64,000 nucleotides of DNA, taken from positions 13,078 through 77,077 of IMG/VR virus record IMGVR_UViG_3300022200_000033; one strand, given 5' to 3'. Origin of the DNA: a virus. The position numbers were made by a program, and so were the translations under genes. The notes below the pieces were generated by a model. It had not been told where the DNA came from. It did not search any database and saw only the letters and a list, made by a program, of their open reading frames with translations. Below are positions 11,501 to 61,677 of this stretch, in pieces; within the stretch, counting starts at the first letter, position 1, and each line of letters opens with the position of its first letter.

Positions 11501-14500
11501 TCATGTATTCAAGAAGTTCTGCTCTTCTTTGAGCTATTACTTCAGATTGTTCTTCTCTCAACTTCTTTCTTTGTGCAACTGCCTCTTCAAGTTGTCCTTG
11601 TTTAAGAATTCTTGCTTCTGAAGCTTTTTTCCTTTTGTCTTCCGTTTTGGCATTTTTTTCTTTTTCTTTTTCTAGACGGATTTCTTCTTTAAGTTTATTT
11701 ATTTTATCTTGCTGTGCAACAATTTGATACTCAACATTGTCTGAAAGGCTTTTTGCATTAGAAACCAAAGACTGTGTATATGCCACGCTAGCCCTTACTG
11801 CTTCATCAAATTCTCCAAAAACTAATTCTGCTCCAGGAAGGTTTTCATAAAAATCATCTCCCCATTTTTTTGCACTTTCTTCGGCCTGCCTTTTTAAAGT
11901 TTTTTCATCAAGCTCAATGCTAGCAACAATATTTGCCAGTATCGTCATTGGTCTTTCTGTTATATCCTCTCCGCTGGCACTTAAAATTTGAGTAATTTGT
12001 GCTATTACCTGTGCAGACAATTCTTCTTTTCCAAGAGCTTCTGCAATTCCCGAAGCAACAGCTTTTGCTTGATCTGGTGTAATCGCACCACTCACAATTG
12101 CCATTGAAAGTTGATTAGCAAAGTTTGTTGCAAAACCAGATGCATTTGCTTTAAAGGAAAGCTTTGCCTCTTCTACCATAGTTTTTCCAAATTCTGTTTC
12201 TACAAATTTTCTTCCTTCTTCTACTACTTCTGGAGTAAGTCCAGCAATCTTATCTTCATTTCTTGATTTAGAAATATCTCTCACAGTTCCATTAAAAAAT
12301 TCACCAAGACTTTTAATTTCTGAGGATGCTAAATTCATAGAATCAGACATTTTTTTGCCAGCATCAATATTATTATCAAGACCTTTTTTCAAAGCAAATC
12401 CTGCAACAGCTACGGATGCAAGAGCTGTTCCCATAATGCCTATTGGGGTTAATAGCAACGGTAAAGCTTTAAGCAACGCTGGCATCACCATTGCAAGTCC
12501 TTGAAAAGCAAACATTGCTGGCATAATCTTTTGAGCGAATTCTCCAATAGGTCCACTTAGCATAGATGCTCCGAAAGCTAATCCGCTCATGGCTCCCATG
12601 GCTCCATTTACTTTTAGTCCCCCAGAAACCATAGTTTTTCCAAATTTTGATGCAGACCCCTTAAGTTTAGACATAGAAGATGAAACTTGTTCTGTTTCTT
12701 TAGTTAATTTTGTCTGAGATAGTATTTGATTTTGAATAGAGTTTGGTGCTATCTGAAGACCCATATTTCTTGGTGGCAGAGGAGAGGATGGCCCTCCCAG
12801 TGGATTCATGGGCCCCATCCTTCCAGCAAATCTTGCATCAAAAGGTGTTGTCATTCCTGGAGCTATCGGAGGCATATTTAGGCTTAATGCTCTGCCTTTT
12901 TCCATAGCAGCTTTTATCTTTAAGTGAGCATCTTGAAGTTCTGCAGACATACCCTGCTCTATTCCCTGCCCAATCCATCCTCCAAGCTGAAGTGACCATG
13001 GTGGTGGGGAAGCAGCATTGGCACCTTCAGTAACTGCTGGCCTTAGTTCTCTTCCTCCAGAAAGACCAAACTCCCTAAACACTCTTTGTGCTGTTGATGT
13101 GCTAAACCCAGAGTCTGTAAGCATTTTCCTGCCTAGATCTGGGTCCATTCCTTGTGCTATCGCTGATGCAAAGATTGCCTTAGATGCTACGCCTCCAGCC
13201 CTCATCTGAGTGGCAAATGTAGCCCAGTATGCTCTAGATCCCTGTATTGCTGCTTGCTCTGCTGACTGTACAGATGAACGAATTAGTTCTGGGGAAACCT
13301 GATCAGAAGAAAATAACAGAGGTGCTTTTCTATAAGTTCTTCCAGAAGAAAGACTTTCTTGTCTTGTTCTTACTGAAGCGTCTCCCAGAGGGGAGGATAT
13401 TCTAATCCTATCGTTTTCTTGATCCATAACGATATTTCTTTCTGCAAGGAGTCTTCTTTGTTCATCTGTAAGATCTGATAGCCCACCAACGCTTACTCTT
13501 AAGTTGTTGTATTCATTTGAAAGATTTTCTATTTCAGAAAGCATCTGCCTTGTTTCATCGTCAAGACTAGAAAATGCTGTTCTAAAAATTTCATCAATGT
13601 TAGAGTCGCCAACTATTGCAAAATCTTCAGCAGCAGAGACTATCGCATTGTCAAGAAGCTGTAGCTTTGGCCTTAATTCTTCAAAATCTTGTCCAGTTAC
13701 TGCTACTGTGCTTTGCCATTTTTCTACTCCTGCTCCACCAAATTCCTGCCCAAATGATCCTCCAGTTAAAGAATCTCTTCTCATTGCTTCATTGAAATTT
13801 GTTGGCATTTCAACAATAAGATTGCTTACAGCGCCAATACTAGAAATTGTTCTTCCAAGAACTCTTTCAATTTCTTGCAAAACTGTAAGATTTCTTCTTG
13901 CACCTGCGGTTAAATTTTCCATAGCAAGGGCTTCTGAAGTGCCCAAACTTACTCTTCCAGTTAAATGAGTTCTAGCAGTTGAACCAACATAATCTGAAAG
14001 CTTTGACCCATCATTCAAACCTTTGACTGTTCCACGATTCATGGCATCAAGTACGGGAGCAAATCTTCTGGTTGCTTCTTTATTCATTACAAATTCACCA
14101 GGGGTTAGTAGTGCTGGCTCAGTATCTTTATTTCCAACGCCACTGATCATTCCACCAGTAGCCATTTTTTTAACAGGACGACCTCCAAATCCCTGAGGAA
14201 GTCCTGAAGCAGCAGAACCCGCTGCAGCAACATATGTTCCATAAGCTCTTGAAAGCTGTCCTACCGCACTTCTTTGAACGTTTAATGCAGCAGTTAATCT
14301 GGTGGTCTTTCCCTCTAAGCTTGCTGCTGCTGCTGCTGCATCTAACTGTTCTCCTGCCAAATATGAAAGATCCTGACCCCCACCCCTTAATCTGTTAAAC
14401 AAATTGTTAAACATTGCAAAACCTTTTACAGCTTGACCAATAAAGTTACCAAACAAACCAATAAGCATAATTACTGTTGGAGCCACAACCCCAACTCCAG

Positions 14501-52226: not shown

Positions 52227-52477
52227 TGATAAATAATAAAAAAATAAAGATCAATCACATGATGGCAGATACTCTATCTATCTCTACAGGAGAGGGTGCA
52301 TATTGTGGAGAGGGATCTAGTGAAATTGCATTCTTCAAAAATAAAGATTGGCAAGTAATTCCAATTCCCGAATTCGCTACATACCATGATGGTAGTGATA
52401 GCGTTGCAGAGACAGCCGTCTATCCATATGTACCTAATGAAAAGATAGAAAAGTTTTTAGATAAATACCGCGCATGA
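52226..52477 (+). CDS. Hypothetical protein
   Basis: GGAGG RBS; 'SISTGEGAYC...EIAFF...VYPYVP'. Confidence 0.65.
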   Translation: MINNKKIKINHMMADTLSISTGEGAYCGEGSSEIAFFKNKDWQVIPIPEFATYHDGSDSVAETAVYPYVPNEKIEKFLDKYRA

Positions 52478-52662
52478 AAAGCGTTGGTATATAAGGGTTT
52501 TTGATATAGCTAAAATACGTTGGTAATAAAGGAGTTTTGGTGCCTGCTTTCTTGTTAATTGTTTTCGTTCTTTCTGTATGTGCTTGGGCGGCTAGTGTCT
52601 TGTAAAACCGTTGGTACTAAAGGGATTTTTAGACTTGACATTTGAGAAAAATCCCGGCCCCC

Positions 52663-52798
52663 TGTGGATAACTTGTGGATAACCTTAAGATAACCCTTAA
52701 GAACCTGTGGAAAACCTGTGGAAACCTATTAACCTAATGTTCATCTTTAACACGGCGTGTCGATTTGACAAGCTTTTTTGTGCATAACTTGTGGATAA
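52663..52798 (-). promoter_or_regulatory. Cluster of six DnaA boxes in three pairs
   Basis: TGTGGATAA at 52663, 52674, 52790; variants TGTGGAAAA 52706, TGTGGAAAC 52717, TGTGCATAA 52779 (reverse of TTATCCACA). Confidence 0.85.
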
Positions 52799-52906
52799 CT
52801 TCGTTATCATTCTGTTATAAAACAAAAACGGACATATAGGATATTCGATAGGTCAAATGTCAGACCCTCGTGATAGGATCTAGTTACTAGATCGAAAGGA
52901 TAAAAA

Positions 52907-53785: not shown

Positions 53786-54690
53786 ATGTCGGAACTCAAT
53801 AAGGCTTGGCGAGATATCTACTACATGCTAGAAGATAACGCTTTCGACTATGTTGGAAAGCCATTCTATAACGACAAGGAAGGAACCGTACAACTTTGGA
53901 ACGGTTCACAATTCATAACATATGCGGAGGTTCCATTCTAATGACAAAAGTTTCTATGCCCCGCGCAGATTGGGATACCGTCATCATGATATTGACAGAT
54001 GCACGCGATAGCGGAAAGTTCGCATACCTTGATCACATAACAGACACCATTGACCATGCACTAGATACCCAGGAGAACTAATGAAACAATTATTTATTTA
54101 TCATCAAGGAACATCAACACTCATTCCATTGAATGATGAGGTGTATCTAGTTGCCGCCGATATTGTTGGCGATGAAATGATCAACGACATGTCTGAAGGT
54201 TGCAACGTGTATCCAATGGAACACAAAGGATACCGCTTAGACAATTACAACATGACCAATTTATTTTTTGGAGGTGCAGAGTGACAAACTTTATCTGTGA
54301 ACATTGCGAATCAAATGAAAATCCTCAATCTGAAATGTGGGAGGAACTGTGTGTGTATTGTAATGAAACAATGCTAATCGCAAACCTAGAAATGGTGCAA
54401 CGACAAATCAAACTAATAGAAATGGATTAGCATGAAAACAAATTGGGCGCTAACAGAAGAAAAAAATATCAGCTTCGAACATTGCAACCGTCCTGCGTAT
54501 TGGGAAAATGAAAATGTTTATTGCTCAAAGTGTGGAGAGGAATTGCCAGATGTTATCTAATAAAGATTTGACACAAAAAGAGTTTGACGTTGCGCTAGAT
54601 CTAAAAATTGCAATGAATTGTTTGATGCAAGAAAACACGTTGGGAACAAAGGAGTATTTGCAGTCTGCAATTAAAAAGTTGCATACCTGA
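53786..54690 (+). CDS. Run of six coupled small ORFs (53786-53941, 53941-54081, 54081-54284, 54281-54430, 54432-54560, 54550-54690); two carry CxxC motifs
   Basis: TAATG/GTGA coupling and GGAG RBSs. Confidence 0.6.
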
Positions 54691-54820
54691 AAAACTGTTG
54701 GTAATAAAGGGTTTTTTGGGGCCCGGCCCATTTTCTTCCACTTGTCAAGTCTTTAAGATGTGTTTAAGATCACACCGAAAAACCCTTGACTTTTTATATA
54801 AAATAAGATAAAATGACATC

Positions 54821-54961
54821 ATGATCAAGACACGAAAAAAGACTAGCGAAGAAATTAGATTCTGGCAAGAATTGCGTAGATCTAACGCTGCCCAGAGTCA
54901 TCGCAATAAGAAAAAATATACTAGAAAAAATAAGCACAAGTCCTTGACTTTCTCTGAATAA
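54821..54961 (+). CDS. 46-aa basic ArfA-like peptide, not in the ORF track
   Basis: MIKTRKKTSEEIRFWQELRRSNAAQSHRNKKKYTRKNKHKSLTFSE; leaderless after TTGACT-N17-TAAAAT. Confidence 0.7.
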   Translation: MIKTRKKTSEEIRFWQELRRSNAAQSHRNKKKYTRKNKHKSLTFSE

Positions 54962-54978
54962 TAAGATAGGTTAATCTC

Positions 54979-55098
54979 ATGATATTAGAACTTGACCAAG
55001 ATGAATTCGATCAATTTGTTTCTATGCTACTACGCGATCCTGTAAATAAGCCAAAGCTTGCTAATCGTATGGCTACCCCCGCACCCTTCACCGACTAA
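54979..55098 (+). CDS. 39-aa peptide resembling the C-terminus of TacA/AtaR (DUF1778) antitoxins, not in the ORF track
   Basis: MILELDQDEFDQFVSMLLRDPVNKPKLANRMATPAPFTD; leaderless after TTGACT-N17-TAGGTT. Confidence 0.65.
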   Translation: MILELDQDEFDQFVSMLLRDPVNKPKLANRMATPAPFTD

Positions 55099-55127
55099 AT
55101 GTCAGACCCCCATGTTAGGATAACACC

Positions 55128-55685
55128 ATGAATAAATTAGCAGATAGCCCCATTGCCCTTGCCGAAGTTTCGGAACACTCCTACTACCAATGCATATTGC
55201 AGGCTACCCTCGCCCAAGTTGAGCAGGCTAGTGTCTGGTACTTTGAGGCACAAGAAGTTGCGGAAGATGTTGCTGAGATCATGGGCGTGAGTTTGGAAGT
55301 GGGTGCTAGTGTTGTGTCTGCATTCTCTCCCCGCGAACGTTGGGCTAGCAATGTTGCCAAGGCGTTTGCATTCGCACACGGTAAGCCCGTCAAGGGTTTG
55401 TCTAATAATCTCAATATGGCTAACAATAGTTTGACAATGGGATTCGAAGCACTTAATGGTCAGAAGACTAATGCATTCGCTCGCGCTATCGCTGGCGACT
55501 CTGACGCGGTAGTGATTGACGTTTGGATGATTCGTGCCGCAGGACTTGACGCTAGCAAAGGTGTAAATAAAACACAATACAACACGCTAGTTGATTCCGT
55601 TCGCAAAGTTGCAAAAGAGTTTGGACTAACACCGCGCACCGCGCAGGCATTGATCTGGATTGTAAAGAGAGGTAGTGCAGAGTGA
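55128..55685 (+). CDS. Conserved phage protein with HhH-glycosylase-like motifs (DUF7178-like)
   Basis: 'WY','SAFSPR..W..N','KT.AF..AI.GD...VVIDVW','QA.IW'; leaderless start. Confidence 0.6.
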   Translation: MNKLADSPIALAEVSEHSYYQCILQATLAQVEQASVWYFEAQEVAEDVAEIMGVSLEVGASVVSAFSPRERWASNVAKAFAFAHGKPVKGLSNNLNMANNSLTMGFEALNGQKTNAFARAIAGDSDAVVIDVWMIRAAGLDASKGVNKTQYNTLVDSVRKVAKEFGLTPRTAQALIWIVKRGSAE

Positions 55686-55915
55686 GTGAAATAATTATTG
55701 ACCCAAAAATATTTAGTGATGAACTTTCAAAAGTTTATGCTAGTCGTAATTCTGAAATTTCGGTCACCCTTCCAAAAATTGCGTGGGAGTCATTGCTAGA
55801 AATTTTGCAGAGTCATAACGCACCGCATGGTGATTTTGACATAACAACAATAATAAATTTGCATAATGAAATATCTGATCAGATGGGAAAACAAATAAAT
55901 GATAAAACTTTTTAA
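55682..55915 (+). CDS. Hypothetical protein (followed by a 25-aa TM peptide, 55899-55976)
   Basis: GTGA coupling, GAGG RBS. Confidence 0.55.
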   Translation: MSEIIIDPKIFSDELSKVYASRNSEISVTLPKIAWESLLEILQSHNAPHGDFDITTIINLHNEISDQMGKQINDKTF

Positions 55916-56117
55916 TTTTTTTGCAGGAATTGTTTTGATTGGGCTTGCGATATTTTTTGCGTTCAAGTATTGGTGAGTCAAAAACTGTTGGTACTAAAGG
56001 GTTTTAGCGGCCCGGCACGTTTTATTAGCTTTGTCAACCTTTTAAGAATCAATTAAGAATATGGCAGAAATCTGCATGAATTTGACAAGTGTCAGTCCTC
56101 TATGCTAAGGTAACCAC

Positions 56118-58011: not shown

Positions 58012-58084
58012 GGTTCTGTAGAGCAGCGGAGTGCTCGCCACCCTGTCACGGTGGAGGTCGTGGGTTCGAATCCCATCAGAATCG
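58012..58084 (+). tRNA. tRNA-Asp(GTC)
   Basis: Acceptor GGTTCTG/CAGAATC, anticodon arm CCACC-CTGTCAC-GGTGG, T-loop GTTCGAATC; no encoded CCA. Confidence 0.95.
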
Positions 58085-60855: not shown

Positions 60856-61677
60856 TTTCGATTATGCCGAGGAACAATGGAAGGATAACAATGGAAACCC
60901 AATTGCCTGAAAAGATAAATGTAATTAGATCTATCACCTATGATGTGCCCAGCATTGTTGATTCCTTGAAGGAACTAATGGGGGAAGAGGATATTAACAT
61001 AGATAGTGTTATGGAATACATTGAAGATTGGGTGTCAGAAGACATGTCAGCACCCTTGTCTCGCCACGACCTTACCTACCTAGATGAGAACGGGATGGAA
61101 CTGTGAAGAAAGAAGAAATGATTGCTGAGTTTACTAAGATGATAGATCATGCTCACGAAGCAGGGTGGCATGAAGGGTATATCAAGGGAATGGAGTTTCA
61201 TAGTGATACACATCTATGAGTGTACTGATGGGGCGACTGTATATCATGAAGCTTACAAGACTGTAATTGGTGAGGGGTGGGGGGAAGACTATATCCTTAC
61301 CTTGGAAGATCAAAATGAATTTGACTTATACCTTGACATAATCAAGGCTCAGGGTGTAGACTTTGTAATCCACACACTAAAGGAGTATGATGAGTATCAC
61401 CTCGCAATATCGTCCTAGCAAGCGTCCTAGCGTAAAGTCTGTTAATTACTGGGACTCTATCTATGCAGAAAGAATTGAACCTCATTGGCGTGGTAATGAT
61501 TTTAATGGTGACGTAGAAGTATTTAGGGGAGACCCATTCCCAGACTTTTATAAAATGATCTTCACACCAGACAAGGGCAAGAAGATAAGTAAACTATTCT
61601 ATGGTGAGTCTGCATGGAATGAAGTAGAGCGTTGCGTCTATGACCTTGGAGCACATAGTGTATTGGGGAGGATTTAA
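60852..61677 (+). CDS. Run of small hypothetical ORFs (incl. 60852-61106, 61149-61418, 61387-61677)
   Basis: ORF track plus RBSs; starts uncertain. Confidence 0.5.

Follow-up and report, generated by a model that had tools for sequence, protein, structure and literature searches.

The analyzed window, a 64,000-nt stretch of the virus record IMGVR_UViG_3300022200_000033 (positions 13,078 to 77,077 of that record), contains, between approximately 50.7 and 58.3 kb, an array of small plus-strand genes, each located behind the phage-specific motif AAATGTCAGACCCC and an extended -10 element; the motif is present in at least 11 copies in this region. A gene of 39 codons lies in this array, between the genes for a 46-aa basic peptide and for a DUF7178 protein (Table 1). 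Its translation is exactly the 39-aa peptide for which a likeness to the toxin-neutralizing tail of DUF1778 antitoxins had been claimed earlier (hereinafter, the original prediction).

Table 1. Features of the locus around the 39-codon gene (coordinates refer to the window).
Feature	Coordinates	Strand	Remarks
Gene for 46-aa basic peptide, DUF7230-like, PHROG 2057	54821..54961	+	Conserved; without functional tie to the 39-codon gene
Promoter TTGACT-N17-TAGGTT	54944..54972	+	Read from the sequence; heads the 39-codon gene
152-nt segment found here but not in close relatives (insertion or presence/absence polymorphism)	54969..55120	+	Empty-site contigs and 13 viral loci
39-codon gene	54979..55098	+	Product resembles the DUF1778/TacA toxin-binding tail alone
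Cassette promoter: AAATGTCAGACCCC motif, extended -10 TGTTAGGAT, 6 nt, ATG of DUF7178	55097..55127	+
Gene for DUF7178 protein	55128..55685	+	Conserved downstream neighbor; context

The promoter of the 39-codon gene consists of TTGACT (54944-54949), a 17-nt spacer and TAGGTT (54967-54972), followed by 6 nt and the ATG at 54979. Because the start codon is this close to the -10 element and is not preceded by a Shine-Dalgarno sequence, the mRNA is apparently leaderless. Upstream of the ATG, the frame stays open for only 3 codons before a stop is reached, and at the other end, the TAA stop codon (55096-55098) overlaps the next AAATGTCAGACCCC motif, which starts at 55097. Direct reading of 54944-55098 thus confirms the arrangement described in the original prediction, namely, an open reading frame (ORF) that possesses its own promoter and a leaderless start, and has its stop codon fused to the next cassette motif. 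The element before 54979 was not flagged in a consensus promoter scan because TAGGTT matches only 3 of the 6 positions of TATAAT. In related phages, the element TTGAC(T/A)-N17-TAGGTT is conserved base for base, and in the relatives L002-L007, L010, L012 and L013, it heads the DUF7178 gene. The -35 box falls within the terminal codons of the 46-aa gene upstream (K-S-L-T-F-S), so that coding and promoter constraints overlap at this site. No hairpin terminator was found in the region 54400-55800. The 39-codon gene is covered by contigs from an RNA library, for which DNA carry-over is possible.

The 39-codon gene is an accessory gene and not part of a conserved unit. It is missing from all 13 related viral loci that were collected through the downstream DUF7178 gene, and in each of these, the 46-aa peptide (46-83% identity) is encoded directly upstream of DUF7178. 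In two relatives that are 92-94% complete, no TacA-like sequence was found anywhere. Contigs with the empty site were detected in two metagenomes: the one in X15 joins 54968 to 55121, skipping 152 nt, and in X7, a loose end at 55121 reads from the -35/-10 elements directly into the DUF7178 start. L002, L003 and L012 are identical to the window (54940-54984, compared with L002:2962-3006) across the promoter and as far as ATG ATA, the first two codons, which in these loci start the DUF7178 gene; the 5' end of the window's own DUF7178 gene (AACACC ATG AAT) matches the empty-site contigs of X7 and X15 instead. With the identities at the 5' end split in this manner, the locus is a mosaic. The empty sites, together with the promoter identity, indicate that the 39-codon gene, along with a cassette promoter, was slotted between the -10 box and the start codon of DUF7178; in other words, the cassette promoter that now heads DUF7178 came in together with the 39-codon gene, and after the insertion, both genes are leaderless. 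Judging from the sequences at the junction, the small gene itself may have arisen through an in-frame junction. Phage counter-defense genes typically reside at sites like this one, among early genes that are strain-specific and bring their own promoters.

In the original prediction, the 39-codon gene was suggested to form a translation-protection module together with an adjacent ArfA-like peptide and two tRNAs. The evidence does not bear out this proposal. The adjacent 46-aa peptide weakly matches DUF7230 and PHROG 2057 (function unknown), with no match to ArfA in a Pfam scan at E-values up to 10, and in 13 of the 13 related loci, it is retained along with DUF7178 in the absence of the 39-codon gene. 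The tRNA-Asp and tRNA-Met genes, at 58012 and 62116, lie 2.9 and 7 kb downstream, behind several other promoters. Thus, a connection between the 39-codon gene, the 46-aa peptide and the tRNAs is not supported.

The sole Pfam match of the 39-aa peptide is PF08681 (TacA1/DUF1778), with an E-value of 0.004 and a score of 17.5 bits. Residues 2-31 of the peptide align with positions 46-75 of the 80-position profile, that is, with the toxin-binding tail. Scores of 17.2 and 18.4 bits (E-values 0.002-0.005) were obtained for the two natural variants of the peptide, and none of 15 other small ORFs in the same region has a Pfam match to TacA1. An HMM search against DUF1778, the check proposed originally, therefore retrieved the expected family, but at a score below the curated gathering cut-off of 21 bits, which is reached neither by the peptide nor by its variants. 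When every small ORF and every family is counted, about one match at this level is expected by chance per window, and the 39-codon ORF had been picked by the same pattern that the HMM measures. Given this chance rate and the prior selection, the Pfam match alone is weak, and other measures were sought.

We gathered 24 DUF1778 antitoxins from 301 Planctomycetota genomes and from E. coli O157:H7 Sakai. In a MAFFT alignment, the peptide runs without gaps along 17 DUF1778 tails, from a conserved Leu to the natural C-terminus, with matches at L5, F10 (a W/Y/F site), F13, the invariant L17, P21, P25 and L27. The closest single sequence is chain C of PDB 7ak7: when the peptide is compared by BLASTP with the C-terminal 39 residues of 7ak7_C, the identity is 31% over 36 ungapped columns, with an E-value of 3e-5 that is valid for that single comparison. 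Both sequences have a C-terminal end that is rich in Pro, with an aromatic residue two to three positions before the terminus, in the common motif M-x-TPAP-[FW]. BLASTP against the AtaR2 tail gave no alignment. Comparison of the three-sequence peptide family with an independent DUF1778 profile, composed of 17 of the 24 antitoxins, using hhalign places columns 3-29 of the peptide on columns 47-73 of the profile, with a P-value of 3.3e-4 and a probability of only 38%. When an HMM of four TacA-clade tails was run against the 1328 six-frame ORFs of the window, the 39-codon ORF ranked first (E-value 0.011), and none of 2000 composition-preserving shuffles matched the score of the peptide. The broader HMM of 24 full-length DUF1778 sequences also ranked this ORF first in the window, at an E-value of only 0.21, and the version of this HMM that included the C-terminal half alone did not detect it. 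The second-best HMM match in the window, an ORF that starts at 61659, was rejected as a 9-residue coincidence. Altogether, the likeness of the peptide to DUF1778 tails is above chance but modest. The DUF1778 tail pattern that was originally proposed is borne out as a likeness, with agreement among the sub-threshold Pfam match, the gap-free alignment, BLASTP and hhalign.

Such a modest likeness could be accidental. The gene then would encode a real small early phage protein with another function, an amphipathic two-helix peptide that happens to share the L..F..F...L..P pattern with antitoxin tails, an explanation that we consider unlikely. The sub-threshold Pfam match and the weak or negative results with the broader HMMs are compatible with this explanation, and so is the scarcity of relatives. 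A phmmer search of 1.8 billion representatives found no relative of the peptide outside its own 90% cluster, which consists of three sequences on about 13 contigs; searches for near and for longer homologous proteins also retrieved this cluster only. Nothing was found for the peptide itself in PHROGs, NCBIfam, PADLOC and a phmmer search of the PDB, or by tblastn against 50,697 phage records, and scans of viral and metagenome contigs with degenerate DNA patterns of the 39-codon gene returned 0 matches. Foldseek, queried with the AlphaFold2 model, gave no significant match, with the TacA1 peptide chain 7ak8_H appearing only at an E-value of 8. In the ESM Atlas, the ten best matches all belong to one family, with a score of 0.87, in a comparison where shuffled proteins attain a first-hit score of at least 0.8 a third of the time. 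Against coincidence, the peptide has 201 of the 256 Atlas features in common with its match, which is within the range usually seen for true members of a family, and no shuffle reached its score with the tail HMM. Moreover, agreement on one family and on one stretch of 35-40 residues was reached by five partly independent measures, in alignments that are end-anchored and gap-free. We regard the peptide as quite likely to be a true homolog of the DUF1778 tail. Very probably, it corresponds only to the C-terminal toxin-binding tail of TacA, AtaR and KacA.

Some of the retrieved sequences have a size similar to that of the peptide. The three nearest clusters in the ESM Atlas consist of 42-47-aa proteins, with PF08681 present in 73%, 83% and 38% of the members; these TacA1-like, tail-only mini-proteins are nearest by language-model features, and no pairwise sequence identity is detectable between the peptide and the retrieved short TacA1-like proteins. 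A profile search with the tails plus the 39-codon ORF yielded, for the most part, pieces of the query antitoxins themselves, along with P0015 (41 aa) and P0017 (39 aa), which are short natural tails; none of these is close to the 39-codon ORF. In a Planctomycetota genome, a TacA1 match limited to profile positions 41-77 (L038, G244:C30:4614-4724, minus strand) forms the last part of an open frame of 195 codons and may be a tail fused to another sequence or reached by read-through from one. The only non-self phmmer match, P0004 (1062 aa), is an ATPase of actinobacterial appearance that contains many 'LLARDPAGKARLDNP' repeats; it aligns with residues 8-33 of the peptide owing to the repeat composition and was rejected as a relative.

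AlphaFold2 models the peptide as a coil (residues 1-6), a helix (7-19), a DPV linker, a second helix (23-32) and a coil at the Pro-rich C-terminal end (TPAPF), with a pLDDT of 73.5. This predicted layout matches that of the KacA tail, which wraps KacT with a strand (5 aa), a helix (14), a PPAP linker and a helix (12), and blocks both KacT dimerization and acetyl-CoA binding (PMC6698736). The tails of antitoxins are, typically, disordered and serve as substrates of proteases (PMC6698736). The PDB includes isolated tails of 36-46 aa from work on TacT/AtaT and their antitoxins (7ak8, 7ak9, 6gtq and 9ilr), and the title of 7ak8 refers to the TacT1 toxin bound to the C-terminal peptide of the TacA1 antitoxin, which indicates that a peptide of this size can bind alone. 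Co-folding of the peptide with Swiss-Prot TACT3_SALT1, a stand-in toxin from another host, gave a score of 0.00 against a mark of 0.32 in a run without controls.

As originally noted, there is neither an RHH domain nor a neighboring toxin. The 39-codon ORF begins at position 46 of the PF08681 profile, and its neighbors are the DUF7230-like and DUF7178 genes. No GNAT gene (PF00583, PF13508) was found in the whole 77-kb record, which is approximately 71% complete. The locus thus presents what is expected of an orphan antitoxin: an antitoxin-like gene in a variable early region of a record without a toxin.

The phage plausibly infects an actinobacterium, probably one living in freshwater, as suggested jointly by protein kinship, the gene content of relatives and habitat. 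The head-maturation protease of this record is a distant relative of its counterparts in large Streptomyces and Rhodococcus siphophages; WhiB genes are present in two near-complete relatives of ~100 kb (L045, G302:C1:63126-63311, E-value 3e-15; L046, G303:C1:72335-72508, E-value 2e-10); and the sequence was found in freshwater, aquatic and estuary metagenomes. The window's own record contains only a weak WhiB-like stretch in a 258-aa frame (G000:C1:890-955). We rejected as a host clue the 7-kb contig L018 (JBIKTI010000524.1) from a Phycisphaerales MAG of a lake metagenome, which is phage-like and was the only match when genome contigs were scanned for hosts. This contig bears a DUF7178 homolog with 60% identity and is probably a mis-binned phage contig.

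The explanation we favor, to which we give about an even chance, is that this is a real early accessory phage gene whose product acts as a stand-alone antitoxin tail neutralizing a GNAT toxin of the host. Under this scenario, the leaderless mRNA would be translated soon after infection, and the largely disordered peptide would fold, as a strand, a helix, a Pro linker and a second helix, onto a tRNA-acetylating GNAT toxin encoded by the host or by a resident mobile element. It would cover the dimer or the acetyl-CoA surface of the toxin, as the KacA and AtaR tails do, and would keep the toxin inactive if host shut-off or proteolysis depleted the labile cognate antitoxin. Without an RHH domain, the peptide would not bind the operator of the toxin-antitoxin (TA) module. 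High specificity is reported for the pairing of TacA with TacT (PMC9431474), so that naming a target would require knowledge of the host. The original designation of the product as a phage anti-toxin-antitoxin protein fits with the tail likeness, the lack of an RHH domain, the absence of a toxin nearby and the early, promoter-flanked accessory cassette, whereas the role itself is putative.

A true homolog of the TacA tail could also perform a different job. It might act against a GNAT toxin encoded in the missing ~29% of the phage genome or by a competing prophage or plasmid, or else serve as a decoy for the host protease that degrades antitoxins. The incompleteness of the record, the lack of an identified host toxin and the disordered, protease-sensitive character of antitoxin tails (PMC6698736) would all accommodate such a role. 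Nevertheless, this alternative appears rather unlikely: toxin and antitoxin genes are normally adjacent and there is no GNAT gene in the 77 kb, and the nearly complete relatives that lack any TacA-like sequence argue against a resident TA module in this phage group.

Very unlikely, finally, is a non-functional open frame left by recombination that joined two promoter cassettes: this is a short ORF in AT-rich DNA, and the identity of its promoter and ATG ATA to the DUF7178 start in L002, L003 and L012 makes a by-product of an in-frame junction conceivable, but the frame begins precisely at the leaderless ATG and ends at the stop fused to the next promoter motif, as in the neighboring cassettes, it is kept intact in samples from different years, and the family likeness would be an unexplained coincidence. 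The identical 39-codon sequence was found in runs of at least 7 studies dated 2017-2025, including an estuary sample. Among the three protein variants, six positions are variable, each of them outside the hydrophobic and proline positions, and the two variants carry only conservative changes relative to the peptide, outside the hydrophobic core. The RNA of the gene is less structured than shuffles (fold z-score +1.4) and has no credible match in Rfam, so that a reading of the 39-codon gene as a structured RNA was dropped as well.

Among the characterized systems, the peptide is most similar to the tails of the TacA-AtaR-KacA antitoxins (PF08681) of GNAT-RHH type II TA modules, with the same length, layout and hydrophobic pattern, and its size is that of the tail peptides that have been crystallized alone. 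Unlike DUF1778 antitoxins, it has no RHH domain for DNA binding and dimerization, and no adjacent GNAT toxin; it is also distinguished by being encoded in a phage behind its own leaderless promoter, by the sub-cut-off score, by a Phe in place of the terminal Trp and by a neutralizing activity that is putative. Antidote halves without a toxin are known from other phages. ORF106 of cyanophage S-CREM1 is designated 'TacA', by annotation only, and the host lacks TacAT according to Table 2 of that study (PMC9964418), whereas for orphan DarG-like phage enzymes, there is experimental proof that they counter DarTG1 (PMC11257639). As with the S-CREM1 TacA and the DarG-like genes, the proposed use here would be to keep a host toxin silent during infection. 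The differences are that the DarG-like proteins are enzymes, and that the present gene encodes a tail only and belongs to a phage lineage different from that of S-CREM1. Phage-borne orphan antitoxins are, accordingly, an established idea, of which the 39-codon gene is a further, rather divergent member with a putative function. The new aspects are the clean insertion polymorphism, with closely related phages that either contain or lack the 152-nt cassette, and the promoter-cassette context, which show how a gene can slot between a promoter and the gene it drives without disturbing either.

GNAT-RHH modules (TacAT/AtaRT/KacAT) are abundant. They are absent from PADLOC, and we found no paper on their defending against phages. 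Phage genes that encode only the toxin-gripping tail would argue, indirectly, that GNAT-RHH toxins threaten phages, and tail-only proteins of this type would be minimal natural inhibitors of tRNA-acetylating toxins. For experiments, other examples would be better suited than the present gene, given its sub-threshold likeness and the uncultured phage. A broader evolutionary scenario can be proposed, which in this combined form is rather improbable: the gene would have been born when a resident leaderless start captured, in frame, the 3'-terminal part of a tacA gene from a bacterium, via recombination between the -10 boxes of cassettes flanked by promoters; the AAATGTCAGACCCC array would be a platform for the shuffling of counter-defense genes; and GNAT-RHH modules would be anti-phage defenses in freshwater actinobacteria.

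Several sequence elements recur across the array. Between 50773 and 58262, AATGTCAGACCCC occurs in at least 11 copies of the same orientation, each with (TG)nTAnnnT behind it and each heading a small ORF, and in the Pfam search of ten such ORFs, there was no match at an E-value of 0.01 or better. Direct repeats of TGTGGATAAC, which resemble DnaA boxes, are present in at least 4 copies between cassette groups (52663-52799). A 26-nt box, AAAAACnGTTGGTAnTAAAGGGTTTT, occurs in five copies after the last gene of cassette groups (52476-52628, 54690-54715 and 55980-56005), with one copy located just upstream of the promoter of the 46-aa gene.
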